A stretch of 32,000 nt of DNA. Source: Candidatus Saccharimonadota bacterium. Its GTDB lineage: Bacteria; Bacteroidota; Bacteroidia; Cytophagales; Amoebophilaceae. The position numbers were made by a program, and so were the translations under genes. Positions 4,533-29,364 of this stretch are shown here, piece by piece. Location: NCBI RefSeq assembly GCF_964030745.1, contig NZ_OZ034918.1, positions 510,001 through 542,000 on the forward strand. The letters are read 5' to 3'. Within the stretch, counting starts at the first letter, position 1. Every line of letters begins with the position of its first letter. A model generated the notes under the pieces. It saw nothing but the letters and a program-made list of their open reading frames with translations, was not told where the DNA came from and did no database searches.

Positions 4533-6350
4533 TTAATAATGCGATTTAGCCGCCCTCTTACGCGCATTGGGATCTAATACCGCTTTGCGTAAGCGAATCG
4601 ATTGTGGAGTCACTTCTACCCGCTCATCATCCTTGATATAAGTAATGGCTTCTTCTAATGTCATCACAACAGGAGGGCTTAACCGAATGGATTCGTCTGA
4701 GCTTGACGCACGCATATTGGTAAGCTGTTTCCCTTTTAACAAGTTCACTTCTAAGTCATTATCTCTATTGTGCTCTCCCACAATCATTCCACCATAAACC
4801 TTTTCGCCTGCACCGATAAACATTTTACCCCGGTCGGCTAAATTAAATAGTGCATATGCCACTGCATCACCCATTCCCATAGCAATCAGCACCCCATTGC
4901 GCCGCCCAGCAATCGTGCCACGATAAGTACCGTAACTATGAAAGCTCCTGTTCATAATACCTGTACCCCTAGTTTCAGTAAGAAAAGCGCCATAATAACC
5001 AATTAAACCACGTGATGGACCAACAAAAATGATACGTGTTTTGCCACCTCCCATTGGACGGAGGTCCCTCATTTCTGCTTTACGCAAACTCATGGATTCA
5101 ATGACAGATCCTGAAAATGCATCATCTACTTCTATCTGAATTTCTTCTAGTGGTTCTAGCTTTTCACCATTATCCCCTAGCTTAATCAATACACGCGGCC
5201 TGCTAATGGAAAGCTCAAACCCTTCTCTTCTCATTGTTTCTATTAATACACCCAACTGTAATTCACCCCGTCCAGCTACTTCAAAAGAATCCTTATTAGG
5301 ACTTTCGGTTACTTGAATAGATACATTTGATTCCAACTCACGCATGAGCCTATCCCGTATGGCATTAAAGGTAACTTTACTACCTTCTGTTCCAGCTAGT
5401 GGAGAATCATTAACGGAAAAGTTAATGGCCAATGTAGGTGGGTCTATAGGAAGGGCAGGTAGGGATTGCATCACAGTAGGCGCGCAAATGGTGTCTGCTA
5501 CGTTAGCCCGTTGCATGCCTGCAATAGCAACAATATCACCAGCATATGCCGTGTCAATGGGTACATGTTCCATACCACGGAAAGCCATAATTTTTGTCAC
5601 CTTGCCATTTTCGATTACCGAATTGTCCTTGTTGAGCGCTTTGATAGCTTGTTGGACCTTTACACTCCCTGTGAAGATTCGCCCTGTCAACATCCGACCT
5701 AGATAAGAATCATATTCCCTTGCCGTTATAAGCATTGAAAAATCACTATCTAAGTCAACGGTTGGAGCCGGTACATGTTCTAGGATTAGATCAAATAAAG
5801 GAGATAGATCTTTCCGTTCTCCGTCTAATGTTCTACTAGCCCAACCTGACCGTCCAGAAGCATAGACAATAGGAAAGTTAAATTGTGCTTCTGTAGCGTC
5901 AAGTGCCATAAACAGCTCTAAGACTTCATCTTCCACTTCAGCTACACGCGCATCTGCACGATCAATTTTATTGATTACTACAATAGGCCGTAATCCCAAA
6001 TTTAATGCTTTACTTAAAACAAATTTGGTTTGGGGCATCGTCCCTTCTGCTGCGTCTACTAATAAGACCACGCCATCTACCATGCTTAGGATGCGCTCTA
6101 CCTCCCCACCAAAGTCAGCATGACCAGGTGTATCAACAATGTTGATACGGGTCTCTTTCCAAATTAAAGAGGTACACTTGGCTAGAATCGTAATGCCACG
6201 TTCTCTCTCTAAATCATTGGAATCCATAACCCGTTCTGCTACTTCTTGATGGGCTCTAAAGGTTCCACTTTGCTTTAATAAATTGTCTAATAAGGTTGTT
6301 TTTCCGTGGTCTACGTGTGCTATAATGGCAATATTACGTAATGGTTGCAT
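4533..6350 (-). CDS. typA: translational GTPase TypA/BipA
   Basis: 605 aa. G1 motif [15 protein letters not shown], plus [12 protein letters not shown] and NKIDR. The full-length EF-G-like architecture and C-terminal domain are typical of BipA. Confidence 0.97.
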
Positions 6351-7119: not shown

Positions 7120-7386
7120 TTAGGCCACAGCTATAGTGAGCCGATTTACATGCTTGGCAAGCTTAGCTTTACTGTTGGCACTTTTATTTTTGTGCACTAT
7201 GTTTTTTGCTGCAAGCTTATCTAACATAGAAAAAACCTTAGGTAGTAACTGTTCTGCAGCGGCTTTATCTGTACACTTACTAACCTTTTTCATAAAAGTT
7301 CTACATGTTTTTAACTGATAACGATTGCGAAGGTACTTGGTACGGTTCGATCTTATGCGTTTTTCAGCGGATGGATGGTTTGCCAT
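7120..7386 (-). CDS. rpsT: 30S ribosomal protein S20
   Basis: The internal ATG at 7386 gives an 88-aa protein beginning MANHPSAEKRIRSNRTKYLRNR, the canonical S20 N-terminus. The longer ORF-track start at 7512 adds 42 non-homologous residues. Confidence 0.93.
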   Translation of the reverse strand: MANHPSAEKRIRSNRTKYLRNRYQLKTCRTFMKKVSKCTDKAAAEQLLPKVFSMLDKLAAKNIVHKNKSANSKAKLAKHVNRLTIAVA

Positions 7387-7406
7387 GTAAATATAATTGA
7401 ATGAAG

Positions 7407-7414
7407 CAAATATA
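7407..7414 (-). promoter_or_regulatory. candidate Bacteroidota-type -7 promoter box (TAnnTTTG) for rpsT
   Basis: An exact TATATTTG on the minus strand ends 20 nt upstream of the rpsT ATG. No convincing -33 TTG was seen, so support is weak. Confidence 0.3.
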
Positions 7415-7617
7415 AAATTTAATTGTATTGAACAGGCTTCTTTTGAAGCGCGCTTATGCTCAGGAATTTGTAGGAGGCACAACGGGCAAAAGCGTAGCGT
7501 ATTGGTATACACAAGGCTTTAAACACCAGGGCAGTATACAAATTGCCATCAGCAGCAGCGTTTAAAAAGAGACCTAATGCAAGATACTACTTTTTTATAT
7601 ACTATTCAATCATTGGA

Positions 7618-8910
7618 TTACCATGATAGGCCCAACCGAAGTCCTGGTATTTCTTGAGAGCGAGCGCTGATACCTACAAAGAAACGCTCTGTAAGCATAT
7701 ACTGTAGATTTATAGAAAAACTCCCCCTTTTTTTCAACAGATTGGATAGTCCACCCTTATTGGGGATTTGTATGGCGGGTTTTTTTGACTCAGTAATTGC
7801 ACAGCCTAGCTGTAGCTGCAACAAGCAACATCCATAACGTATCTCATAGCCTAATAAGGCGGTAGCTTCTACACCTCCTCCTGCTAGCATGTTGGTTAAC
7901 AACGCTTTTTTATACCAGCTGTAGCCTAGCTCTATGGAGGATAATAGGGCATTATTATGGTTAATAGCAAAACTAAATAATGAAGATCCCCTAAAAATCA
8001 AATGGTATTTTTTGGTTGATGGTAGATACCTACTGCTGCCACCTATACTACAATCTACTCTACTGCTTTTCCGTTTTCTATAATGGATCGGACGATCAAC
8101 CAATTTCCAAAAAGGTTGTGTATGGATCACATATCGTATACCTATAGTGACTATAGGTGCCAATTTGAATATAATGGAAGCATTGTCTAACTCCCTGAAA
8201 GGTTGCCTATTGCCATGCAGCTGATCGGTTTCATTGGTTTGATGCTGCTTAGACCTATGTTGTCCCTTGTTAGGCCAGCCATTGATCAACAGCCCCATAC
8301 AAAGGTTAAGTTGCCAAGAGGGGGTACATGCCCAATGATAGGTAACTTCTTCTATAGATAAAAAACTATAGTTGGGCTGATCCTTTTTTTGTGTACATAT
8401 ACTGCCCTTTATGGCACCCATACTGATCCTGTTCCCCCATGTAGACAGAGTGGGATGGGTCTGATATAGCTCCATATAAGCCAAAATCCCCCATATGCTA
8501 GGAAATCTAACCTGCTTTCCTTTGTGAAACCCATAGGGCATGAAAAAGGATAAGCCAATTCTTGGATAGGATTCAAGTTGAGTAGCAAAAAAGGCATTGA
8601 CATATAAAATATCTATATCAATGGTAGTGGGGATAACTATTAATGGCTTTTCATTAGAAGCAGGTTGTATTGTATCAGTGGTATGGCGATCCATATCCTT
8701 ATGCACCATCCCTCCAGTACGTAACTGTATAGAGCGTGGATAGGGATACCAAGTCGGGTCCATAGCAGTTGGCAATGTGGCCATATGACTGTTAGCTTGC
8801 CCAGCAGCTTTTGTTACAAAAGGCAATAACCAAGTTATAAACAAAAAAAAACGTAATATATATTGGTTCGTTGGGTTCAAAGGAATATACATTAAAAATG
8901 AATGGAGCAA
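7618..8910 (-). CDS. hypothetical secreted/outer-membrane protein
   Basis: 430-aa ORF. Hydrophobic N-terminus (ILRFFLFITWLLPFVTKAAGQ) consistent with a signal peptide. Beta-strand-like segments and a C-terminal ...GLRLGLSW. The start may be the second Met at 8892. Family not recognised. Confidence 0.5.
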   Translation of the reverse strand: MLHSFLMYIPLNPTNQYILRFFLFITWLLPFVTKAAGQANSHMATLPTAMDPTWYPYPRSIQLRTGGMVHKDMDRHTTDTIQPASNEKPLIVIPTTIDIDILYVNAFFATQLESYPRIGLSFFMPYGFHKGKQVRFPSIWGILAYMELYQTHPTLSTWGNRISMGAIKGSICTQKKDQPNYSFLSIEEVTYHWACTPSWQLNLCMGLLINGWPNKGQHRSKQHQTNETDQLHGNRQPFRELDNASIIFKLAPIVTIGIRYVIHTQPFWKLVDRPIHYRKRKSSRVDCSIGGSSRYLPSTKKYHLIFRGSSLFSFAINHNNALLSSIELGYSWYKKALLTNMLAGGGVEATALLGYEIRYGCCLLQLQLGCAITESKKPAIQIPNKGGLSNLLKKRGSFSINLQYMLTERFFVGISARSQEIPGLRLGLSW

Positions 8911-8985
8911 CTGCCTTATAAAAAATATGTTCCTGATATGCTCCTGACATCAAAGCAATATAGGAAGATTTTTTTTGTTCAAAAA

Positions 8986-9960
8986 ATGAAACATTATCTT
9001 TTGGTCTATATTAAGACAGTTTATTGGTTGACCTTGTGCTACCTTCCTTTAGAGGCTTGGTCTTGGGGGTTCTTTGCACACAAACAGATTCATCGGTGTG
9101 CTATAACCACCTTACCACCCACTATGTTTCCCTTTTATAAAGCACACCTTACCTTCTTAGTAGAAAAATCTATAACGCCGGATAAACGCAGATATGTAGT
9201 CAAAGATGAAGCATCAAAACACTTTATAGACCTTGAAGTCTACCATGCTAGCCAGGTGAAGGATCCAAAACTTTTGTTGCACCAGGCTGTAGCAAAACAT
9301 GGCGCTAAGGCAGTAGCAACACATGGCACGCTCCCTTGGGCGATACTAGATGTACAACAACAATTAACAAAAGCTTTCATAAGTAAAAATACAGCTAAAA
9401 TTCTACAATATTCAGCAGATTTAGGTCATTACATTGCTGATGCACACGTTCCTTTGCATACTACACAAAACTACAATGGGCAAATGACAGGTCAGGAGGG
9501 TATTCATGCTTTATGGGAGACAAGACTGCCTGTTGTATTTTTCGACACCTATAATCTTTTTGTAGGGCAGGCTGTTTATATCGAGGATCCATTAACCCAT
9601 ATATGGGATATTATACTACAGTCCCACGCCTTAGTGGCCAACCTACTGGATTTGGAAAAGCAACTTTCCAAGCAGTATCCGGCAAAATATAGTTTTGAAC
9701 AAGAAGGAAATCTATTAAAAAAACAATATTCCATTGCATTTTCTACTGCTTACCATCACGCCCTACAAGGGCAGGTTGAAGCCCGTTTGCAGCAATCCAT
9801 TAGGGCAGTAGGAAGTTTTTGGTTAACCGCTTGGGTCAACGCCGGCTCACCTAATTTGAATGATTTGCATACCGCCCCAATGGATCAAGATAAAGAAAAG
9901 CAGCTGCTCCAAGAAGGCATCATTTTAGAAGGCATTCGGGCATGTGGGGAGGAGCATTAG
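8986..9960 (+). CDS. zinc-dependent phospholipase C / S1-P1 nuclease-like superfamily protein
   Basis: Starting at ATG 8986 gives a signal peptide (MKHYLLVYIKTVYWLTLCYLPLEAWS) followed by WGFFAHKQIHRCAITTLPP, PDKRRYV, KHFIDLE and LGHYIADAHVPLHTT. These motifs are remembered from the Bacteroidota 'zinc dependent phospholipase C family protein' group. Confidence 0.7.
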   Translation: MKHYLLVYIKTVYWLTLCYLPLEAWSWGFFAHKQIHRCAITTLPPTMFPFYKAHLTFLVEKSITPDKRRYVVKDEASKHFIDLEVYHASQVKDPKLLLHQAVAKHGAKAVATHGTLPWAILDVQQQLTKAFISKNTAKILQYSADLGHYIADAHVPLHTTQNYNGQMTGQEGIHALWETRLPVVFFDTYNLFVGQAVYIEDPLTHIWDIILQSHALVANLLDLEKQLSKQYPAKYSFEQEGNLLKKQYSIAFSTAYHHALQGQVEARLQQSIRAVGSFWLTAWVNAGSPNLNDLHTAPMDQDKEKQLLQEGIILEGIRACGEEH

Positions 9961-10670: not shown

Positions 10671-12128
10671 ATGCTATCCTTATATATACCACTTTTGATG
10701 GTGGCAGCTTTTTTATTATTTGAGTGGATTTTTGTATCCTGCTTGTCTATTATCCCCACTACATTTCGGGACTATAGTGTAAGCACCAAGCAGCATGACA
10801 CCCCTCTTTTGGTTTACATTTTACTATTTACTTTTTTTGAAAGTGGATTAATAGTACGTACCATACAAGAAGTGCATCACCTTGGTCTTCCTTGGATCAT
10901 TTTCGAATTTTTGAGTGGTTGCATACCCTTTTGGATTGTCAGTTGTTTGGCATTACGTATGGGCCCCTTTATGCATAACTTGTCTATGTCAGAGACAATA
11001 GGGAATGTCTATGGTAGATATCCGATGATTATTACATCATTATCCAATATTTGCTGCGCTACTGTGGTGGTCGCTATTCAAATGAATATCATCTCTTTAG
11101 CAATCAATATCTGTTTAGATTGGGTTGATCCAAGAATAGTGACTTTTTTGACCATTTTGCTCCTTGGTTGCTATACAGTCATTGGGCGGATGCGTGTGTT
11201 TAGCTTAACAAATATTGGGCAACTGGTTGCCTTTTTAATTACGCCCTTAATTTTGTCTTGTTGGATGTCTATGCGCATGGACGAGCCGCTCTTAGAACTA
11301 CTGGGTAGGTTATTTATGAGTCAAGCAAAAAATCATTTGAACAACCTATCCCATTCAGACTTTAATGCACCGGCCATCTTATCATTATTTTTGGCCAATC
11401 AAGTTTCCTGTATACAACCCTTGATGATGCAAAAAGTATATATGTCTTCTGATCACTTTCAAGCGCGCAGTGTCTTCTTCTATACTGGTATTTTTGGCGC
11501 TATTATGAAGTTTTTTATTTTACTATTTTCTTTGATTCTCCTTTCAGCTGCTCCAACGTTATCTTTAACAGAAATTTGGAGCTATATAGTAACCGGCATG
11601 CCACCCGCTTTAAAAGGGCTTGTCGCCATTAGCCTGCTTTCTGCAGCGATGTCTGTAGCGGACACTTATTTAAATACGCCTGCTGTCCTGTTTAGTCATG
11701 ATATAGTAGAAGGTATGATGGATCAAAAATGGATACCCTATCGTTATCAGATTCGATTGGCTAAACTAATAGCTTTGTTGATGGGGCTGGTTGCTATGTT
11801 ACTCAACACCCACTGCAGTGATTTAATGGAGTTATGCAAATTACATTTGGATTGTTTTATACCTATAGCAATCGCCCCTTTTATTTTAGCTGTTTTGGGT
11901 TTTCGTGGTACCTCCCGAACTGCTTTGATGGGTATGGCCGCAGGCATATTGGCTATTTGGAGCTGGAATAAATGGGTAGAGCCTATTACACACATCAATG
12001 GTGCTTTCCCTAGTATGGTAGCCAATTGTCTAGCTATGATGGTGGCCCATTATTTTTTTCCACGACCGAAGAAGGAGCTAAAGCAGACAAAACAATCAAA
12101 TGAAAACCATCAACCAAAGTTATATTAG
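10671..12128 (+). CDS. sodium/solute symporter (SSS/SLC5) family paralogue, stand-alone, with degenerate signature motifs
   Basis: 485 aa and polytopic. Collinear with residues 1-470 of the 13015..16608 product, for example LALRMGPFMHNLSMSETIGNVYGRYP vs LALRMGPFLKHLSMAETIGSIYGKYP, and IAPFILAVLGFRGTSRTALMGMA vs IAPFILAVFGFRGSARTALIGMA. Confidence 0.75.
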   Translation: MLSLYIPLLMVAAFLLFEWIFVSCLSIIPTTFRDYSVSTKQHDTPLLVYILLFTFFESGLIVRTIQEVHHLGLPWIIFEFLSGCIPFWIVSCLALRMGPFMHNLSMSETIGNVYGRYPMIITSLSNICCATVVVAIQMNIISLAINICLDWVDPRIVTFLTILLLGCYTVIGRMRVFSLTNIGQLVAFLITPLILSCWMSMRMDEPLLELLGRLFMSQAKNHLNNLSHSDFNAPAILSLFLANQVSCIQPLMMQKVYMSSDHFQARSVFFYTGIFGAIMKFFILLFSLILLSAAPTLSLTEIWSYIVTGMPPALKGLVAISLLSAAMSVADTYLNTPAVLFSHDIVEGMMDQKWIPYRYQIRLAKLIALLMGLVAMLLNTHCSDLMELCKLHLDCFIPIAIAPFILAVLGFRGTSRTALMGMAAGILAIWSWNKWVEPITHINGAFPSMVANCLAMMVAHYFFPRPKKELKQTKQSNENHQPKLY

Positions 12129-12176: not shown

Positions 12177-12785
12177 ATGGAAGATGATTTTAAAAAAATA
12201 TTGCAAGGTTACAAAGCATTTAGAAATAAATATGTTGATGCTGATCCATCTATTATGCATAGTTTACATCGCAATGGACAACAGCCTAAAATTATGGTGA
12301 TCGCCTGTTGTGATGCTAGAGTAGATCCCGCTTTAATATTACAATGTGATCCGGGAGATTTATTTGTGGTGCGTAATGTAGCCAATATTGTACCTCCTTA
12401 TGAGCAAGACAAAGGACATCATGGCACAAGTGCTGCTTTAGAGTTTGGTATTTGTCTCCTTGACATAGCTCATTTAATTATACTGGGCCATAGCCAGTGT
12501 GGAGGAATAAAGGCTTTATTAGAAAATGGAGATGTAAAGCAAGATGATTTCATTACCAATTGGGTTTCTTTAATCAAAACGCCTAATTTTAAAAACCATC
12601 AAGCAGATGATTATGCTAAATTGTCCTTAGCGCAATCCTATGAAAACTGCATCACCTTTCCCTGGATTAAAGCAAGAACACAAACCGGAAAACTTACAAT
12701 TCATTTATGGTTCTTTGATATTCAAACAGGACAAATTTATACTTACACTAAGGATACCCAATCCTATCAAACACTATTGGTTTGA
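12177..12785 (+). CDS. beta-class carbonic anhydrase
   Basis: 202 aa. Zinc ligand motifs CCDARVDP and GHSQCGG at canonical spacing, and the length is typical of Can/CynT-type beta-CA. Confidence 0.92.
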   Translation: MEDDFKKILQGYKAFRNKYVDADPSIMHSLHRNGQQPKIMVIACCDARVDPALILQCDPGDLFVVRNVANIVPPYEQDKGHHGTSAALEFGICLLDIAHLIILGHSQCGGIKALLENGDVKQDDFITNWVSLIKTPNFKNHQADDYAKLSLAQSYENCITFPWIKARTQTGKLTIHLWFFDIQTGQIYTYTKDTQSYQTLLV

Positions 12786-13014
12786 TACATTTGATACAGC
12801 ATAGAAAAAAATAATAGATCCATTGTATATATTCAATATATACATATCTATATACAATCTATAAATTTTACACTCTAAATCAGAACAAAAAAAATTATTA
12901 CCAACCAACAACCAGTTCACTTACCTTTCTTTTTTTGATTTTCATATAAAAATTTGTACTATACAATTTGTGTTTCTTGTATAAATATTCTTCACTGATT
13001 TAACACTATGTTTT

Positions 13015-16000
13015 ATGACATGCTTTAACATACCACTGATTATAGTAGGGGCTTTTTTAGTATTAACCTTAGTAGTAGGCATCTATTTTAGTAGAAGAAA
13101 AACCACCTTTCGAGAACATGCTGTTGGGAATAAAGAGTTTGCTACAGCTACTCTAGTAGCCACGGTATTGGCTACTGCTTATAGTGGAGGAGGATTACTA
13201 CGTACTGTAGAATGTGTGTATAACCTTGGCCTGTGGTGGATAGTCATTACTTTTTTAACTTGCTTTGATGCATATCTTATTGGGAAATTAGCCTTACGAA
13301 TGGGGCCATTTTTGAAGCATCTCTCTATGGCAGAAACGATAGGTTCCATTTATGGTAAATATCCAAGGATTATGGTCGCCCTGGTTAGCGTGGTTGGCTC
13401 TGTAATTGCTATTACTATGCAGATTAGTGCAATGTCCAAGGCTATTACTATGTGTATAGATACAGCTGACGATCGTATGGCAGCTATCATCTCTACTTTA
13501 GTGCTTATTTTTTATTCCGCCTTTGGAGGTGTGCGTGCGGTTACCTTCACTGATGTATTACAGTTTATAACCTTTGCAATCATTATTCCGCTACTTGCTT
13601 GGTTTATGTTTATTAAAACTGGAAAGTCAACTGTAGAAATCATTTCATTTTTACATAACCATACTACTAAATTTCAATTTAGTAGCTTGTTTCAGTGTAA
13701 TAAGAAGCTTATGAGCATGTTGTCATTGATTCTATCTTTTTTAATAGCTCGCATGTACCCATCTATTATACAACGCGTCTACATGGCTTCCGGTCCACTC
13801 CAAGCTCAAAAAGTTTTTACTTATGTGACTATTTGTAGTGCCATTATATGGAGCTTTATACTCCTAGTAGGCGTATTGGCTTTTGTAGGAGCACCTAACT
13901 TAGTAGGTAAAGAGATCTGGATTTATATAGTGAATGGTGTGCCGCCTATCTTTAAATCGTTTCTGGCTATCAGCTTATTGGCTATGGCTATGTCTACAGC
14001 TGACTCTAATTTAAACTCCTCTGCGGTGATGATTAGCCATGACATCCTAAAGCATATAGGTAGAGGCAAAAAACTTGCCCAGGTTAACCAACTTAAGTTG
14101 GCCAAATGGGCCACATTAGTGATAGGGTTATTGGCCATGGTATTGACTTTTTACTGTAATGATTTATTGATATTGATGTACTGGGCCCTGAATTGCTATG
14201 TTCCGATAGTGATTGCTCCTTTTATCCTAGCTGTTTTTGGATTTCGAGGTAGTGCCCGTACCGCCTTAATCGGTATGGCTGTAGGTGTGCTGACGATTTT
14301 ATCCTGGAATAAGTGGGTCGAACCGTCTACATCCATGGATGGTTCCTTTATTGCTATGTTAGCCAATGCTTTAGCCATGATGGCTGCCCATTATTTATTG
14401 AAACAACCGAAAAATACTGGCTGGACTCGGCCTCAGCAGGATCATATGGTTCATCAAATGCAACAAGAAAATGCCCGTAAGCAAGCAGAACGAAAAGAAA
14501 CAATGAAAAACGCTTGGACCAATAAAAAAGATACCCTAGCTAAGTTACAACCCAAGCATGCCACGTTAACTTGCGTGGGATTCTATATTATCATCAGTAA
14601 TTTACTGGCTTATTTTATAGCCTCTATTACCGAGCATAGTGGTTGGCTTATCGCGCAGCTCTTAGTAGGCATTTGTTTTTTAGGGTATAGTACCTTTATA
14701 TCAGAAAAAACAAAACCGATTCAGGATTGGGTTATTGGCCTATTTTGGCTAATTGGCTTATCTTTCTGCTTTCCCATTAACGTGCTATGGCATTGGTGGC
14801 ATGGCACCAATCTATTCTTAACCCTAGGCTTATCTTTGGCCCATTTGGCAGTTGCCTTGTTGACGCTGCCACTATATCTGGGTGTGGGATTTTTAATGGT
14901 TACCCTATTCATGATGATCTACCTTAGTGCTATTTATTGTACCAAACCACTGGTGCTGGTATTGTCACCAGCAGGTGTGGTATTGCTACTGTTGCTCTGT
15001 TTGGGATTGGGCTTACTTATCTTTACCATTTTTGTTTACCTTAAAGCCAAGAATAATCGTTACGCCAACCAAGTAACCTACTTAAGGCGTAGAGAAAAAA
15101 TGCACACATCCCGTAAGTTCAAGGAATCGCTCTATAATTCAGCTATACTTGCTACTGCTGGCACCCAGCCTAACGGCAACGGTTCTATTTTAGCGAAAGT
15201 AGTAGGAAAAGTAGAGGAATCCATCTCCTTTTTAGATGACAACATGCCCCTTTATAAAAAGGATTTTCAAAGTATTATCAATAAGTTTTATGATTGGGTA
15301 GCCTATTTCAATAAAAAAGAAAAGGCCAAAGACCATGCATTGTTGCAGCCTACTAAAATTACCTTAGATAAACTGATTCGAAAAGTAGAGGTTGCGTTGT
15401 CTCAAGAGGTTACACACCGACCTAGGCTGTTTCTAGAGTGCATCAAGAAGGCTGGTGATCCGGTTGTTTCCTATATAGTATGTGATATCCATCAAGTAGT
15501 CTATTCCTTGGTTAAGGCTGTTTTACAAGTTGGTGGTAGGTTGGATGGAACCAACGCACCACTTATTCGTATACAGCTCCATGCCACCTCTTTGCGGTTT
15601 AAACAGGTTGATCCTTTTAATAATCGCCCTCCTTCTTGCATCTCGTTCGAAGCTATTGCGCTAGTGATAAGCGACCTTAGTATGCCTCCTGAAACACTTC
15701 CAACCATCAAAGCAGTCTACGATGATGTGGTAGATGGTATGGGCGTACAAAGCAAACAAGAAATGCCACCATCGTTAGACCTTCAGCGGGAAACAATAGC
15801 CAGTATTGTGGCTTCCCATTACGGTTATATGGAATATGGGGCTGATGCTAAGGAAAAAGCTATATTATTGGTATTGCCTACTGATGTCACAGCCATTCGT
15901 GATAAAATGATGATCAAACTACCTATAGATTACTTAACCTCCGAAACGCCTATCACCCCTAAGGAGCAAGCCGATTCAATGATGATCCTGATGCAGTTCC

Positions 16001-16608
16001 ATGACTATGTCTGTAAGTCTTCGCATCGATCAGATCCTATTGATGTAGCCACAATTTCTGGTTTGCTTTTATTATTGCGGAAACATTTTCGCTTTAGACG
16101 ACATAGCTCTGGCCAATTGTTTTATGTACGAGCGGTAGGCATTGCCGCATTGGTGGTAGAATGGTTTTTTCACTCCCCTAAAGTGATTTATGCTGCTTTA
16201 CTTTATGGATTGGTTCGTCGTACCTGTTTGCCTCTTTCTTACATCAAGGAACATTATAACTTGGGCGTTTATGCCTTTGTATTGAATGTAGTGGGTATAG
16301 ACAAACGGGAAAAGCTAGACCATCCTTCTTTGCTCTATGTTAAGAATCGTTTGAAGGAAGCGCTTAAGGAAGATCATGTACAGCTTTCCGTGCTCTTTAT
16401 AAAACTGGCTGAACGGCTCTATGATTTGCGCCATGCAGCAGGTTATATGTGCCTAACAGAGGTTAAGTATATGGCGCAAGAAACCTTAACCATAGATGTG
16501 CAGATAGCTCATACACACTTAGGCCCAGAGATAGGGATGGCATTAGAACAAGCAGCCAAACAGGCATTAGAAATTTGTAAAAGTAAGGAAGAAAAGGTGG
16601 TGAACTAA
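13015..16608 (+). CDS. multidomain membrane protein: SSS/SLC5 domain + extra TM block + degenerate histidine-kinase-like core + degenerate SpoT/Rel HD-like domain
   Basis: 1197-aa uninterrupted ORF. Residues 1-~470 form the SSS domain (GGVRAVTFTDVLQ signature). Residues ~470-515 form a charged helical linker and ~515-679 about six TM helices. Residues ~780-958 follow HATPase_c-like spacing and ~1022-1185 align with the Rel/SpoT hydrolase domain. See findings. Confidence 0.85.
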   Translation: MTCFNIPLIIVGAFLVLTLVVGIYFSRRKTTFREHAVGNKEFATATLVATVLATAYSGGGLLRTVECVYNLGLWWIVITFLTCFDAYLIGKLALRMGPFLKHLSMAETIGSIYGKYPRIMVALVSVVGSVIAITMQISAMSKAITMCIDTADDRMAAIISTLVLIFYSAFGGVRAVTFTDVLQFITFAIIIPLLAWFMFIKTGKSTVEIISFLHNHTTKFQFSSLFQCNKKLMSMLSLILSFLIARMYPSIIQRVYMASGPLQAQKVFTYVTICSAIIWSFILLVGVLAFVGAPNLVGKEIWIYIVNGVPPIFKSFLAISLLAMAMSTADSNLNSSAVMISHDILKHIGRGKKLAQVNQLKLAKWATLVIGLLAMVLTFYCNDLLILMYWALNCYVPIVIAPFILAVFGFRGSARTALIGMAVGVLTILSWNKWVEPSTSMDGSFIAMLANALAMMAAHYLLKQPKNTGWTRPQQDHMVHQMQQENARKQAERKETMKNAWTNKKDTLAKLQPKHATLTCVGFYIIISNLLAYFIASITEHSGWLIAQLLVGICFLGYSTFISEKTKPIQDWVIGLFWLIGLSFCFPINVLWHWWHGTNLFLTLGLSLAHLAVALLTLPLYLGVGFLMVTLFMMIYLSAIYCTKPLVLVLSPAGVVLLLLLCLGLGLLIFTIFVYLKAKNNRYANQVTYLRRREKMHTSRKFKESLYNSAILATAGTQPNGNGSILAKVVGKVEESISFLDDNMPLYKKDFQSIINKFYDWVAYFNKKEKAKDHALLQPTKITLDKLIRKVEVALSQEVTHRPRLFLECIKKAGDPVVSYIVCDIHQVVYSLVKAVLQVGGRLDGTNAPLIRIQLHATSLRFKQVDPFNNRPPSCISFEAIALVISDLSMPPETLPTIKAVYDDVVDGMGVQSKQEMPPSLDLQRETIASIVASHYGYMEYGADAKEKAILLVLPTDVTAIRDKMMIKLPIDYLTSETPITPKEQADSMMILMQFHDYVCKSSHRSDPIDVATISGLLLLLRKHFRFRRHSSGQLFYVRAVGIAALVVEWFFHSPKVIYAALLYGLVRRTCLPLSYIKEHYNLGVYAFVLNVVGIDKREKLDHPSLLYVKNRLKEALKEDHVQLSVLFIKLAERLYDLRHAAGYMCLTEVKYMAQETLTIDVQIAHTHLGPEIGMALEQAAKQALEICKSKEEKVVN

Positions 16609-16640
16609 TCTTATTGGTATCCATTCACGCCTCTGGCTGG

Positions 16641-16814
16641 CCGCCTTATCTCCTTCGATAAAAAGTCTGGCCCGATAGTAAATAGCTGAATCGATACATT
16701 TTTCAGCGGGAAAATCGTGAACTCAGCCCGCAAGCGGGCTTCAAACAGACGATTTTCTAATCCGCTGAAAAAATATATCGCTCAGGTGTTAGTGTTTTAC
16801 TAGAGCGCCATTTT
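16641..16814. repeat. long imperfect palindromic intergenic element (left arm, central hairpin, part of right arm), interrupted by the IS
   Basis: Central hairpin 16691..16780: cgatacatttttcagcgg...gcccgc aa gcgggc...ccgctgaaaaaatatatcg. The outer arm tctccttcgataaaaa (16649..16664) matches the reverse complement of 18123..18138 at 15/16 positions. Confidence 0.7.
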
Positions 16815-18119
16815 GAGGCCGTTGCAATAGACCTTTACGATTTGCCATAAAAAGTATCTTTTTATTTTTTAGAAGAAGGTAAAAAAAGGTTAAATTCTAT
16901 TGATTTTTTTAGGTATTGATGCTTAAAACTTTTAATAATATTGTGTATGTCGCTCAAGCAAACTAAGCAATTAAGTTTTTCAGATATTTCCGCCAATAAG
17001 CGTAAGTGCAAACACACTTTCTTTGATCAAATCAACAAGCTAGTTAATTGGTCAGTAGTAGAAAAAGCACTCCGATTACATTATCCTAAAGGTTTACGTT
17101 TATCAGGCAAACCGGCCTATAGTCCTCTGCTTCTATTCAAAATGCTATTGCTACAGACGTGGTATGGCTTGAGCGACTATGCAGTCGAAGAAGAAGTGAA
17201 TGATCGTATCACTTTTAGCAGATTTTGTGGTATTTCGATGGATAGTTCTGTTCCAGATCATAGTGTACTAAGTAGATTTAGAACTACCCTTACAGAGAAG
17301 AATGCTTTAGAAAAGTTATTGCATATCATTAATAATCAGCTATCTGATCATGGTGTATTGGTTCAAAACGGTTCAGCAGCTGTAGATGCTTCTATTACCC
17401 CTACCCCTAGACGCCCTAAAGGTAAAAAAAGCTACGATCTGCATGAAGATGGAACCATAACCACAGCTGAAAGTTATCAAAAAGGAGTAGATCCAGAAGC
17501 AAGTTGGATAAAAAAAGGCCATCATCTCTACTATGGCTATAAGCGGCATGTTCTTGTGGAAAGCAAAGAGGGGTTGGTGCTAGCCGTAGGTACCACAAAA
17601 GCATCTAGTCATGATAGTGGGCATTTACAGGTATTATTGGATAAAGTAAGGCTAAAATCAGGCAGCAGACTCTATGCAGATAAAGGCTATAGCGGGTCGC
17701 CCAACGAAAATTTACTAAAGAAAAAGAAGTTAAAATCAGCTATTCAGAAAAAAGGGGCTAGAAACAATCCTTTATCACCCACTGCTAAACGGTTTAATAA
17801 ATTAGTATCTAAAACGCGCTATAAAGTAGAACGGGTATTTGGAAGTATTAAAAGTTGGTTCCGTAGCTCAGGAGCCAGATATATAGGCCTTGCTAAAACC
17901 CATACGCAACATGTTATGGAGGCAATAGCCTATAACTTATATAGGTCCCCAAACATCATATTAAGAGGTATCTAGGGGAATGGTGTGTCCAAAATAGATT
18001 GAAAATGACTAAAAAATCAGTAAATAAATAGTTTTATACCACTATAACATCAAATATGGCAAGGAAATAACCCTGGAAGATTAATCAAAATTATACCTTC
18101 AACCTATCACAACGGCCTC
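16815..18119 (+). mobile_element. IS5-family insertion sequence (about 1.3 kb), apparently intact
   Basis: Terminal inverted repeats GAGGCCGTTGCAATAG (16815-) and the reverse complement of 18119- (GAGGCCGTTGTGATAG) match at 14/16. Flanked by ATTTT on both sides (16810..16814 and 18120..18124). Single DDE transposase ORF inside. Confidence 0.85.
16947..17975 (+). CDS. IS5-family DDE transposase (DUF772 N-terminal + DDE_Tnp_1)
   Basis: 342 aa from ATG 16947. N-terminal LLFKMLLLQTWYGLSDYAVEEEVNDRITFSRFCGI is typical of IS5-group transposases. Candidate DDE residues lie in AAVDASITPTP, LYADKGYSG and RYKVERVFGSIK. Confidence 0.9.
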   Translation: MSLKQTKQLSFSDISANKRKCKHTFFDQINKLVNWSVVEKALRLHYPKGLRLSGKPAYSPLLLFKMLLLQTWYGLSDYAVEEEVNDRITFSRFCGISMDSSVPDHSVLSRFRTTLTEKNALEKLLHIINNQLSDHGVLVQNGSAAVDASITPTPRRPKGKKSYDLHEDGTITTAESYQKGVDPEASWIKKGHHLYYGYKRHVLVESKEGLVLAVGTTKASSHDSGHLQVLLDKVRLKSGSRLYADKGYSGSPNENLLKKKKLKSAIQKKGARNNPLSPTAKRFNKLVSKTRYKVERVFGSIKSWFRSSGARYIGLAKTHTQHVMEAIAYNLYRSPNIILRGI

Positions 18120-18439: not shown

Positions 18440-19951
18440 TTATTGTTTTGTAAGGCCAATAGACTTTTTCCATCTAATGGTCAAGATATAAAAGGTGGCT
18501 AAAATGATTATATGTAGGAAAATATAGGCCCATCCTGCTCCTAAAAACGCTAGTTTAGCCCGCCATAAGGAAACTTTATCCAATGCTAAAAAGGTAGCCA
18601 AAAGCAATAAAAAACCATGCTTATGATAAGGTATTGGATAACATTTTTGACCAATATAGTATCCCAGTAACCCCATAGCAACTGCACCACTCATAGAGGC
18701 ATATACACACCCCCAATGGCCCAGTGTCGGTATCAATAGTAATGCCGTACACCAAATCACCAAAGTACCCAATGCACTGATCCAAGTGTTATATCGTGGA
18801 TGGGCACTCAATTTAAAAGCAGCACTCAAGTTGTAATAAACACCTAAAAGGATATGCGCAAATGCTAAATAGGGCACAGTGTCAATGGTATGACGATAAT
18901 CTGCATTTGGAATCAGGATCTTAGCCACCCAGTTTATATTTACACTAAAAAGCAATAGACAGCAGCAGGATGCTAATATAAATAGGTGCATCGTTTGACT
19001 ATATAATTTTAGTGCCTCCCTGCGTGCTGAGTTGGCAAAAAAGAATGGTTCTGCAGCATGTTTAAAGGCTTGAATCCCTAGTGTAATACATAAAGTCAGC
19101 TTACAAGAAGTGCCAAAGTTACCTAATATTGCTTCCTTTGTATGGGTGACATAAAAATTACTAGGAACCAATTTTCGAAACAACAAGAGCGGAAGTGTTT
19201 CATTCATTCTAAAAAATAGCGTTGTTAAAAAAGACGTGGCTGCATAACCTCCTATCGTTTGAATGGTACGGTTGTTCCAAATCAAATGAAATCCCTTAAA
19301 ATTTGGCAATAGAAGGGTTAAAGCGGTTAGGCTAGACAACAAATTAGCTATAAAAACGGCATCTAATCCATTGAAACTTACCTTTATGTTCAAATAACTA
19401 TCCAATAAATATTCTATACATCTCAAACATAGAGGACAGCAAAGCAAAAGAAAAGAAAAGAAAAGACTAGCAAAAGCTTGTAAACATTTCACCAACAGCA
19501 ACCACAAGGTTTTTTTTGCTACACGTAAACGGGCATAGGGAATCATCAGTAGCGTATCAAGCATAAGAATACCAGTCATATAATAGAAATAACGTATATG
19601 GGCTAGGTGGTTGGTGATTCTTGCAATTTGTGGCGTATATATAATCAGTAGGGTTGATAAAATAATACTAGTAACCAACAATATAGTTACAATTATATTA
19701 AAGGTATATTGTTTGCCTAATATATGTACATACCTAAAATAGGTCATATCCATGGCCAAGTCATAGATGACATGACCCAAAGCAATATAACTTCCATAGA
19801 ATTCTATAACGATACTGTATGCACTGGGTGTCAGCACATTGGTTTGAAGTAGTAAAGCAAAATAGGCACATCCGCGTACAATAATGTTGCTTATGCTATA
19901 TATAATGGTTTCTTTACCAAGTGTTTTAACTGTGTTGTGCATCGTAGCCAT
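18440..19951 (-). CDS. MOP-superfamily oligosaccharide/polysaccharide flippase (Wzx-like)
   Basis: 503 aa with about 12-14 TM segments. The N-terminus GKETIIYSISNIIVRGCAYFALLLQTNVLTPSAYSIVIEFYGSYIAL...MDMTYFRY resembles Bacteroidota 'polysaccharide biosynthesis / flippase family' proteins. The last gene of an apparent adk-obg-flippase co-directional unit. Confidence 0.65.
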   Translation of the reverse strand: MATMHNTVKTLGKETIIYSISNIIVRGCAYFALLLQTNVLTPSAYSIVIEFYGSYIALGHVIYDLAMDMTYFRYVHILGKQYTFNIIVTILLVTSIILSTLLIIYTPQIARITNHLAHIRYFYYMTGILMLDTLLMIPYARLRVAKKTLWLLLVKCLQAFASLFFSFLLLCCPLCLRCIEYLLDSYLNIKVSFNGLDAVFIANLLSSLTALTLLLPNFKGFHLIWNNRTIQTIGGYAATSFLTTLFFRMNETLPLLLFRKLVPSNFYVTHTKEAILGNFGTSCKLTLCITLGIQAFKHAAEPFFFANSARREALKLYSQTMHLFILASCCCLLLFSVNINWVAKILIPNADYRHTIDTVPYLAFAHILLGVYYNLSAAFKLSAHPRYNTWISALGTLVIWCTALLLIPTLGHWGCVYASMSGAVAMGLLGYYIGQKCYPIPYHKHGFLLLLATFLALDKVSLWRAKLAFLGAGWAYIFLHIIILATFYILTIRWKKSIGLTKQ

Positions 19952-27948: not shown

Positions 27949-29364
27949 TTAAGCCTTGCCTACATTCGATCTAACGTGACAACTATTGTTATTTTTATTC
28001 TGGTTCAATAAATTGTTAACGTCATCAATAAGCTCCTTAACCTTGCTATTGACCTGATCAAAACCAGTTTCATTTCCTTGAATAAAATTAGCAAGATATA
28101 CCTGAGTGATAACTAACTGAACATCTTCTCTTCCTATTACTTCTACAAGTTCTTCTTTCTTCAAATGATTTCTAGCAAAATAAAATGATACGATGTTACT
28201 AAAGGTAGATATTAAATCGATTATGCCTAAACTATAAGCAATATTATAAAACATTGTAAGACTACCAATGACATTGTCTTTAAGGCTAGAATCATCGCTA
28301 TATTCAATCTCATTAATTAATTCACTAAGATTAGCATACATATCTTGAATAGGTTTCAAACTAGATTTAATTAGCTTATTAATGATTTTTATAAAGCTAT
28401 AACGATTCTCATATGGACCATATTCTATAATGTTTTTCGATTCAGTACGGAAACACTTTACAAGCGCTTGACTATACTCTGCGCTGTACATACGCTTAAC
28501 AGTGTTACACACTGTTTGATATCGTTCTTTAGCTTCCTTGGTACGAATTTTTCCTTGCACAACACTAGTATTAAGCGCATGAAATATGAACAGTTCAACT
28601 ATTTTACCCCAATAGGATAAAAGATCCAGATATAAGAAATCTGAAACTCCATATAAAAATACCTCAGCAGTGTCCTTGTAAGAAGAAACATAATTGTAGC
28701 CTTGTTGCTTGTTCGTGCAGTTACAAAAGTGATCCGGGACATTTTTGTCTTTAGCAGTACTAATCTGAGTTTGACTTATTTTATCAATTGCAAATTGTAC
28801 AAGACTATTAACGGTGTTAGTGAAATTTTCTGGTTTCATACATGAATCATCACACAGATCTTTTAAGCGCTTAGAAGCCGCTTCGTTCCAAAACTTTAAA
28901 TAACACAACGCATAGAACGTATGCGAGAAAGTTTCAAGATTTTTAAGCTTTGGGGAAGTTTCAAAATTTTTAAGCGTTATCCTATTGTCTTGAGAAACTC
29001 TAGTATAATCAATAGCATTCATTTCATTATACTGCATAAGAGAATAGCACTTTTGACCACCCCTATCCTGCTGTTTGGAGTGAAATGCCCCATCGGTTCT
29101 AGCAATGCTATTAAGCGTATAGTCACCTCTATGCGTATCAATGTATGCACAACATTGTTTAAAGGTTTCAAGTAAGGTATTTACCTTTTTCAGTACATCA
29201 CTAAATTCATATGGCTTCGAAGTAGAAGCCTGGGCAACTACACTTTGTTCTTCTAAAGGTGGGGTATCCATCCTATTATTTTTCGAATGGTAGCTGCATC
29301 CAACTAATAATGCCATTAAATTAGCGGACACAATAGAACAATAGTACCTGCCTGTTTTTCTCAT
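27949..29364 (-). CDS. orphan Cys-rich predicted lipoprotein, function unknown
   Basis: 471-aa ORF. Lipobox-like N-terminus (ANLMALLVGCSY). Rich in N, K, S and Y with many Cys, and predicted mostly helical. No family recognised. Flanked by an AT-rich 160-nt upstream region. Confidence 0.6.
   Translation of the reverse strand: MRKTGRYYCSIVSANLMALLVGCSYHSKNNRMDTPPLEEQSVVAQASTSKPYEFSDVLKKVNTLLETFKQCCAYIDTHRGDYTLNSIARTDGAFHSKQQDRGGQKCYSLMQYNEMNAIDYTRVSQDNRITLKNFETSPKLKNLETFSHTFYALCYLKFWNEAASKRLKDLCDDSCMKPENFTNTVNSLVQFAIDKISQTQISTAKDKNVPDHFCNCTNKQQGYNYVSSYKDTAEVFLYGVSDFLYLDLLSYWGKIVELFIFHALNTSVVQGKIRTKEAKERYQTVCNTVKRMYSAEYSQALVKCFRTESKNIIEYGPYENRYSFIKIINKLIKSSLKPIQDMYANLSELINEIEYSDDSSLKDNVIGSLTMFYNIAYSLGIIDLISTFSNIVSFYFARNHLKKEELVEVIGREDVQLVITQVYLANFIQGNETGFDQVNSKVKELIDDVNNLLNQNKNNNSCHVRSNVGKA

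Follow-up and report, generated by a model that had tools for sequence, protein, structure and literature searches.

In the CbrA and CrbS proteins of Proteobacteria, an N-terminal SLC5/SSS domain is coupled to a DHp-CA module in the cytoplasm, and the transporter acts as a sensor (a transceptor). RetS, DivL, and the histidine kinase-related domain (HKRD) of plant phytochromes are histidine kinase (HK) folds that signal by conformation or protein contacts and not by autophosphorylation. To our knowledge, none of these three carries a fused transporter or HD domain. In the Rsd-HPr-SpoT system of Escherichia coli and the DarB-Rel system of Bacillus subtilis, transport or ion-uptake status is passed to SpoT or Rel via soluble partners. 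In this study, the gene at positions 13015–16608 of a 32,000-nucleotide stretch of DNA (positions 510,001–542,000 of contig NZ_OZ034918.1; the whole stretch is called the window below) was analyzed. Its product of 1197 residues carries a sodium/solute symporter domain, a further membrane block, a kinase-like core, and a Rel/SpoT-type HD domain in one chain.

The gene family has a published record. 'SLC5sbd' and 'SLC5sbd+HK' genes of Rickettsia have proliferated in Orientia and Occidentia and were laterally exchanged with Amoebophilus and Cardinium (Driscoll et al. 2017, mBio, PMC5615194). Published counts are 12 copies in Cardinium cEper1 and 19 in A. asiaticus, and the family is among the most duplicated in such genomes. 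The name used for it is 'putative sodium/solute symporters' (PMC5698495, PMC8831229), and the 19 genes of A. asiaticus are described as life-cycle regulated and of unknown function (PMC8831229). A. asiaticus also has Rel and 14 rickSpo genes, part of the 'rickSpo' expansion (PMC3153485); an orthogroup 'spoT .../sodium glucose cotransporter' has 18 copies in Amoebophilus (PMC6232779); and pieces of these genes are listed as repeats like miniature inverted-repeat transposable elements in a mite Cardinium (PMC12039267). No detailed study was found of the four-part architecture, of the pseudo-kinase, or of the HD active site and its fixed loss in Cardinium.

The open reading frame (ORF) at 13015–16608 began with ATG on the forward strand and ran without interruption for 1197 residues. 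The protein was 100% identical to WP_342265741.1, a RefSeq protein of the Cardinium endosymbiont of Philonthus spinipes (1.09-Mb contig) with the product name 'sodium:solute symporter family transporter'. A preliminary description, made from the letters of the window alone, had supposed a reduced genome, which agrees with a 1.09-Mb contig from an obligate insect endosymbiont. The order of domains was an SSS domain with 13 transmembrane (TM) helices, six more TM helices, a DHp-like part, a CA-like part, and a Rel/SpoT HD domain. Given 13 plus 6 TM helices, the C-terminal half would be wholly cytoplasmic. The gene and its parts are as follows.

13015–16608, forward strand: full gene, 1197 residues, SSS domain, six TM helices, HK-like core, and pseudo-HD domain (ORF listing; identical database protein).
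13015–14424, forward strand: SSS/SLC5 domain with about 13 TM helices, residues 1–470 (Pfam, NCBIfam, hydropathy, family profile).
14425–14556, forward strand: Lys/Arg-rich charged linker including QQENARKQAERKETMKNAW (residues 483–501), predicted cytoplasmic, residues 471–514 (sequence).
14557–15054, forward strand: family-specific six-TM block, residues 515–680 (hydropathy, AlphaFold2).
15055–15339, forward strand: DHp-like helical hairpin without a conserved phospho-acceptor His, residues 681–775 (models, Foldseek, alignment with Megaera).
15340–15894, forward strand: degenerate CA (Bergerat/HATPase_c-like) alpha/beta domain, residues 776–960 (Foldseek, PDB profile, alignment).
15895–16044, forward strand: linker and helix between the CA-like and HD domains, residues 961–1010 (model, alignment).
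16045–16569, forward strand: Rel/SpoT-type HD_4 fold with a destroyed active site, residues 1011–1185 (Pfam, PDB profile, Foldseek, residue mapping).

The reading favored here, to which we give about an even chance, is that the protein would be a 19-TM Na+/solute symporter or transceptor with two pseudoenzyme output domains, which would form a non-catalytic regulatory tail, and that it would stem from a system in which a transporter was coupled to an alarmone hydrolase.

A database search gave 328 homologs of the 1197-residue protein at E ≤ 1e-3. Among the 120 homologs listed, nearly all were 1150–1200 residues long, and the query coverage was 97–100%. Because of the identical RefSeq protein and the many full-length homologs, a chance ORF and an assembly artefact are both ruled out for 13015–16608. 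Split versions of the gene occur in some relatives, for example at loci L040, L044, and L052, which would fit a long ORF made by artefactual fusion through a sequencing or assembly error. However, the same uninterrupted layout of about 1150–1200 residues was present in more than 90 full-length homologs from many independent assemblies, including complete chromosomes. The source genome alone contained at least eight full-length paralogs, and C. hertigii DK880 at least 14. Such a fusion, which the preliminary description had named as a way for it to fail, is extremely improbable.

When one genome per species was scanned, Amoebophilaceae and reduced 'Cytophagales' and 'Bacteroidota' metagenome-assembled genomes (MAGs) of 0.9–1.45 Mb proved to contain relatives, with many paralogs each. 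Relatives were also found in Rickettsiaceae (Rickettsia and Megaera) and in one Francisellaceae MAG. With domain hidden Markov models built from the family, 76 loci were found to encode the SSS domain and TM block, with or without the HK-like and HD parts; they belonged to Amoebophilaceae, Rickettsiaceae, and one Francisellaceae MAG. The family was found almost only in obligate intracellular bacteria. Most non-Cardinium Amoebophilaceae copies had all four parts with intact HD motifs, and a few were degenerate. The Rickettsiaceae versions lacked the HD domain and were 930–1020 residues long; some of them, in Megaera, were true kinases. The preliminary description had left the novelty of the architecture open. 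The family is already in public databases and is heavily duplicated in Amoebophilaceae and Rickettsiaceae. The architecture is neither unique nor categorically new, and the Cardinium branch is a double-pseudoenzyme variant of a catalogued family.

The 1197-residue protein showed collinear homology with the 'SLC5sbd+HK' family over the SSS domain, the six-TM block, and the HK(-like) core. Like the Cardinium proteins, the Rickettsiaceae members have proliferated in intracellular bacteria, and their substrates are unknown (PMC5615194). Their identity to the HD-intact Amoebophilaceae relatives was 31–37% (best segment), mostly over residues 9 to about 800–1000. The Rickettsiaceae proteins end after the HK(-like) core, and any hydrolase is a separate neighboring gene, while the hydrolase domain of Cardinium is fused and dead.

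The Pfam SSF profile (PF00474) matched residues 37–424 at profile positions 3–406 of 406, with an E-value of 2.5e-17 and 63.3 bits against a gathering score of 22.8. The N-terminal SSS domain is thus complete, as had been proposed, and this above-threshold match across the whole transporter core places the protein in the SSS family (Transporter Classification 2.A.21). The NCBIfam model 'sss' gave an E-value of 1.3e-20 and 73.9 bits, under its own cut-off of 184. PanF (E 7e-14, 51.7 of 328 bits) and PutP (E 2e-11, 43.3 of 515 bits) were also sub-threshold. Such weak similarity to PanF and PutP points to no particular substrate. The hydropathy of residues 1–465 fitted about 13 TM helices. A profile of the relatives matched the solved SLC5 transporters CHT1, SiaT, SMCT1, SMVT, and vSGLT; a single-sequence PDB search with the SSS domain gave no match, and only the profile reached the solved SSS structures.

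GG(V/I)RAVTFTD and AMSTADSNLN were near-invariant core motifs of the SSS domain across the family. The 'MST' motif of TM8/9 is taken here as a Na+-site or core motif (S340/T341 in PutP). These conserved motifs indicate, but do not prove, that transport function is likely retained. The charged helical linker was located at residues 483–501, its charge being read from the sequence. It is predicted to be cytoplasmic because it follows an odd number (13) of TM helices in the SSS topology.

AlphaFold2 models were obtained for residues 684–1197 and 505–975, with mean predicted local distance difference test scores of 73 and 76 (75.6 for residues 505–975), which are moderate. Six hydrophobic segments were seen by hydropathy at residues 516–679. 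The model had helices at residues 515–536, 542–561, 571–596, 600–617, 620–649, and 652–714, so the expected block of about six extra TM helices was found by both means. Y524 and P619 were near-invariant columns of this block, and the block matched no Pfam family. Residues 652–714 formed a single helix of 63 residues, in which the sixth TM segment left the membrane and became the first cytoplasmic (DHp-like) helix. As modeled, this unbroken helix shows the wiring typical of membrane sensor kinases. Of 1.84 billion cluster representatives searched exhaustively with a profile of the TM block and HK-like region, only 733 matched. The best 150 of the 733 were all collinear with the profile, mostly at about residues 500–950 of full-length proteins. 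The TM block with the HK-like module appears to be essentially private to Amoebophilaceae/Rickettsiaceae-type lineages.

The preliminary description had proposed a Pfam check for both the transporter and the output modules. In the whole 1197-residue protein, Pfam matched SSF and HD_4 only, and no STAC, PAS, HisKA, or HATPase_c domain was matched. Neither NCBIfam, applied to the full-length sequence, nor Pfam, applied to 22 C-terminal fragments, matched HisKA, HATPase_c, STAC, or PAS. For HisKA and HATPase_c there was no Pfam match even at E ≤ 1 in the query and 21 relatives. Because Pfam gave no kinase match, kinase ancestry is argued from the profile, the fold, and a Megaera ortholog.

The family sequence profile matched ThkA (E 2e-5) and ZraS (E 9e-4) in the PDB. 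The predicted fold of the core was a helical hairpin followed by an alpha/beta sandwich. With the model of residues 505–975, the top 50 Foldseek matches in the PDB were all HK or HK-related chains, nearly all of them DHp-CA, including ZraS (E 3.6e-8), HK853, CckA, the pseudo-kinases RetS and DivL, and the phytochrome HKRD. The model of residues 684–1197 gave the same DHp-CA set, and the E-values of both models together were 3.6e-8 to 1e-5 (about 1e-8 to 1e-6 for the leading matches), with probability 1.0. The TM-scores for DHp-CA were low because the relative domain orientation differs. In these models, the core has the DHp and CA fold of sensor histidine kinases, and the GHKL-type matches that had been anticipated were obtained.

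The kinase motifs were not retained in this fold. No conserved His was found in the DHp-like helices of Cardinium or other Amoebophilaceae paralogs. In the alignment with L068, a 932-residue ortholog of Candidatus Megaera polyxenophila, the N, G1 (DxGxG), F, and G2 boxes were absent from the query, and in the model a low-confidence loop replaced the ATP-lid region. The sole CA motifs left were 'CD' (D824, the Asp before the N box) and 'AHYG' (residues 935–937), with 'HYG' for 'HGG'. L068 is a canonical SLC5-6TM-histidine kinase (gene at about 5965–8760 in L068 and L070), with an SSF match and with HisKA (27.1 bits) and HATPase_c (78.8 bits) above Pfam thresholds. Its boxes were H, NHEYHAPMTG; N, DNLIINTISY; G1, DEGIGI; F, FEPF; and G2, GRGVGL...HGG. 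L070, also from Candidatus Megaera, shared these boxes when aligned. None of them was present in the query, in any Amoebophilaceae member, or in most Rickettsia members, all of which keep only 'CD' and 'HYG'. Because the Megaera orthologs retain the H, N, G1, F, and G2 boxes at columns that are degenerate in the query, the alignment identifies the kinase-like core as the fossil of a genuine kinase.

The protein resembles CbrA and CrbS in that an SLC5 domain is joined to a DHp-CA-type module, but it differs from them in several respects. Between the SLC5 domain and the kinase-like core, no STAC or PAS domain was detected, and the six-TM block was found there instead. The H-box and the ATP motifs are missing, and a Rel/SpoT HD domain serves as the output in place of a phosphate transfer to a response regulator. 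RetS, DivL, and the phytochrome HKRD were similar to the HK-like core in fold; they showed no kinship in sequence or context, and they keep more CA motifs.

The Pfam HD_4 profile (PF13328) matched residues 1021–1166 with 30.4 bits against a gathering score of 27.2. All 22 C-terminal fragments tested also matched HD_4, with a best E-value of 7.6e-31. The family profile matched the RelSeq hydrolase in the PDB with an E-value of 4e-42. Foldseek matched SpoT (7qpr) and Rel (8acu, 6s2v), with a root-mean-square deviation of about 3 Å over about 200 columns. The HD_4 profile and the Rel-hydrolase fold were both present, and the Rel/SpoT-type HD fold suggested earlier was confirmed.

The active site was mapped on RelSeq with the HMMER alignment and the family alignments. 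In RelSeq, we take H53, H77, D78, and D144 to be Mn2+ ligands, E81 and D82 to be catalytic, and H147 and N148 to be conserved site residues. The ligands H53, H77, D78, and D144 correspond to R1039, Y1064, G1065, and E1133; the catalytic E81 and D82 to R1068 and R1069; and the site residues H147 and N148 to Y1136 and D1137. Every metal and catalytic position was thus replaced in the query. Together with the lost kinase boxes, this bears out residue by residue the claim that both output modules are catalytically degenerate. Some non-catalytic positions conserved in Rel were kept, namely K141 (K1130), R145 (R1134), T83 (T1070), and mostly R150 (R1139).

An active CbrA/CrbS-type kinase, a (p)ppGpp hydrolase with non-canonical residues, or both, would be in line with the presence of the DHp-CA and HD folds and with the canonical kinases among the Megaera orthologs, and E1133 could in principle still bind metal. 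However, the missing DHp His, the missing N-box Asn and G1, F, and G2 boxes, the replaced ATP lid, and the lack of any HisKA or HATPase_c match speak against a kinase. Against a hydrolase, R, Y, and G have taken the places of three of the four Mn ligands, and both members of the ED pair have become R. Activity of either kind is very unlikely.

The replacements were fixed among 82 full-length Cardinium-group paralogs. In RelSeq numbering, Y77, E144, and D148 were each found in all 82, and R81 in 80. The mean pairwise identity among Cardinium-group paralogs fell from 67.5% in the HD domain and 55.8% in the SSS domain to 43% in the CA-like domain and 35% in the TM block. Because the replacements are fixed and the dead HD domain is the most conserved domain, these alignments point to a constrained pseudoenzyme and not to decay. 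In 14 more distant full-length homologs (P0107–P0120), the canonical motifs R..SGEPFYLHP, LLHDTVEDT, THL, and KLADRxHNMRT were present. H77/D78 and E81/D82 were found in 14 of these 14 HD-intact relatives, and D144 in 13. The (p)ppGpp hydrolase activity is predicted to be absent in the 1197-residue protein and present in the HD-intact relatives.

Three proteins from ENA contigs of about 80 kb (P0102, P0103, and P0106) formed a divergent clade with 31–34% identity to the query. They already had the Cardinium-type Y77, E144, Y147, and D148, and they carried an insertion of 15–20 residues following the 'AHYG' motif. From their residues, HD catalysis may already have been lost before the sampled Cardinium strains arose.

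The same conservation bears on a simpler account, in which the protein is a plain nutrient transporter and the HK-like and HD parts are functionless leftovers, at most a passive dimerization scaffold. Both catalytic sites are destroyed, SSS-only paralogs arise repeatedly (one of them 0.9 kb upstream in the window), and the published papers treat the family as transporters only, all of which fits this account. A leftover would decay, however, and at least 82 paralogs from many Cardinium strains retain about 520 residues in frame. The dead HD domain is more conserved than the transporter, and the replacement residues are themselves fixed. A functionless tail is considered quite improbable. If the tail were a mere scaffold, the result would be a useful annotation correction of modest importance.

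The link of the family to alarmone enzymes was also seen outside the fused genes. Separate small alarmone hydrolase (SAH) ORFs of 207–223 residues directly flanked HD-less genes in six loci, mostly of Rickettsiaceae, in convergent (L049, L051, L057), divergent (L038, L056), or same-strand (L052) orientation. The SAH ORFs of L049, L051, L038, and L052 passed both catalytic-motif checks. That of L056 had the HD/ED motifs and failed the DRxHN pattern, and that of L057 had HL for HP. The fused intact HD domains were 40–49% identical to these stand-alone SAHs. Fusion in one lineage and adjacency in another are classical evidence of the kind that suggests a functional link to an alarmone hydrolase, and the family probably links host-nutrient uptake to alarmone signaling.

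Two observations were made beside the SAH genes. In the Rickettsia endosymbiont of Polydrusus tereticollis (L059), a 193-residue small alarmone synthetase-like ORF with EIQIRT and YQSLH was found at 5059–5637 on the reverse strand, divergent and about 330 bp upstream of an SLC5-TM-HK-like gene. In L052, an ORF for a TraD/VirD4-like coupling protein (7165–8871, reverse strand) adjoined the split SLC5-HK-like and SAH pair, which suggests that this gene pair sits in a conjugative element like the Rickettsiales amplified genetic element.

The HD_4 fold is common to the Cardinium protein and the rickSpo SAHs (Atkinson et al. 2011, PMC3153485). The rickSpo SAHs are described as single-domain enzymes in that paper, where the words 'transmembrane' and 'symporter' do not occur, whereas the Cardinium HD domain is without metal and catalytic residues. 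The functional logic, from nutrient or ion uptake to an alarmone hydrolase or synthetase, would be the same as in Rsd-HPr-SpoT and DarB-Rel, and the DarB-Rel complex (8acu) was among both the PDB profile and the Foldseek matches of the HD domain. Unlike those systems, the transporter and the hydrolase fold are found here in one polypeptide, or in adjacent genes in Rickettsiaceae.

A mechanism can be proposed for the transceptor with a non-catalytic regulatory tail. In the ancestral form, the TM block and the dimeric DHp-like stalk would pass on the occupancy or transport cycle of the symporter. The signal passed on would switch a (p)ppGpp hydrolase, so that host-solute supply lowered the alarmone level. 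In Cardinium, hydrolysis would have been lost once, and the HD domain would have survived as a regulatory domain without catalysis; by binding a ligand or partner, it would either adjust transport or signal the state of the transporter. The protein would still import a host solute together with Na+. From the fusion, the gene neighborhood, and the conservation, a transceptor or scaffold function is plausible. The fuller proposal, in which a host-metabolite symporter controls a (p)ppGpp hydrolase via a fossil HK stalk and the Cardinium hydrolase has become a conserved non-catalytic receptor for an alarmone, nucleotide, or partner, is put forward tentatively, as possible rather than probable.

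The signal could also flow the other way, with the cytoplasmic module as sensor and the symporter as output. The protein would in that case be an importer gated by an alarmone or nucleotide. The HD domain, catalytic in relatives and non-catalytic in Cardinium, would bind (p)ppGpp or a related nucleotide and gate uptake via the DHp-like stalk and TM block. This agrees with the retention of K1130, R1134, T1070, and R1139 next to a wholly replaced metal and catalytic site, and with the rank of the pseudo-HD as the most conserved domain; the unbroken helix from TM19 to DHp could signal in either direction. On the other hand, the role of these residues as ligand contacts is presumed from Rel structures, and the pairing of HD-less relatives with separate soluble SAH genes is left unexplained. 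Reverse flow also presupposes that Cardinium makes alarmones, and it is regarded as unlikely.

Several points weigh against the symporter or transceptor with a regulatory tail. The substrate, the transport itself, the hydrolase activity in HD-intact relatives, and the way the signal runs are all inferred. Because SSS-only paralogs arise repeatedly, at least some copies can do without the cytoplasmic module. The AlphaFold2 models are of moderate confidence and the DHp-CA TM-scores are low. The adjacency of SAH genes may partly reflect abundant spoT paralogs as mobile-element cargo in Rickettsia (PMC4316617). A motif scan for alarmone synthetases across all retrieved loci found one only, in the Rickettsia locus, and the literature on Cardinium with ppGpp, the stringent response, or relA contained nothing decisive on a (p)ppGpp synthetase. 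If Cardinium had no (p)ppGpp synthetase at all, an alarmone-related role for the dead HD domain would be unlikely.

Cardinium, Amoebophilus, Rickettsia, and Orientia do not grow axenically, and their sensing of host nutrients is largely unknown. The family is annotated only as 'sodium:solute symporter' despite its heavy duplication. If an importer is linked to an alarmone hydrolase, there would be a concrete route from host nutrients to the stringent response. A transporter-coupled alarmone switch would be a previously unrecognized signaling device, and the Cardinium protein would be a true nutrient transceptor with two pseudoenzyme domains. The Cardinium proteins would also be a clean natural double pseudoenzyme, with a dead kinase and a dead hydrolase under strong constraint. 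The transporter-alarmone link and the conserved dead hydrolase are the aspects most worth pursuing.

The gene is flanked in the window by the following features.

10671–12128, forward strand: SSS-only paralog, 485 residues, WP_342265739.1 (40% identity to residues 1–492 of the 1197-residue protein).
12177–12785, forward strand: beta-class carbonic anhydrase, between the two SSS genes (Pro_CA, E 4.8e-40).
16941–17975, forward strand: IS5-type DDE transposase, 330 bp downstream (DDE_Tnp_1, E 2.8e-27; DUF772, E 5e-24).

In the SSS-only paralog, GGVRAVTFTD was changed to GRMRVFSLTN and MSTADSNLN to MSVADTYLN, and the tree branch was long; it may be a decaying or neofunctionalized copy. SSS-only ORFs of about 480–515 residues were also found directly upstream of a full-length gene in L016, L035, L043, and L048. 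In L028, another full-length paralog lay between the SSS-only and the full-length gene, and in L040 the downstream gene had no SSS domain of its own. The L043 ORF was 88% identical to its neighbor, and downstream in L048 were four further SSS-only ORFs in tandem, of which the last was truncated by the locus end. This layout suggests that tandem duplications recurred and that the cytoplasmic half was lost in them. The upstream SSS-only ORF was also considered as an ancient conserved partner and rejected, as a neighbor-joining tree of SSS domains showed no single SSS-only clade. The SSS-only genes of L028, L035, and L043 clustered with full-length genes from the same locus or genome. Because there is no single clade and several are nearest to such genes, the SSS-only forms arose repeatedly.

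The carbonic anhydrase had no evident link to the flanking SSS paralogs. The IS5-type transposase fits the duplicative, mobile behavior of the family. No functionally linked neighbors were found in the window, which otherwise contained housekeeping genes (bipA, radC, rpsT, a PAP2 protein gene, obg, adk, and mreB) and hypothetical ORFs; no response-regulator gene was recognized among its Pfam-annotated ORFs. Six ORFs of 352–503 residues (143–1432, 1622–2896, 7618–8910, 8902–9960, 18440–19951, and 27949–29364) had no Pfam family at E ≤ 1e-5 and are uncharacterized Cardinium proteins. A promoter scan of 12700–17000 gave 16 promoter-like sites against 14.4 expected, which is uninformative since Bacteroidota promoters are outside the model. 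In the same interval, 10 terminator-like sites were found against 3.4 ± 2.4 expected. All of them lay inside the coding sequence of the 1197-residue protein, and the excess is probably compositional.

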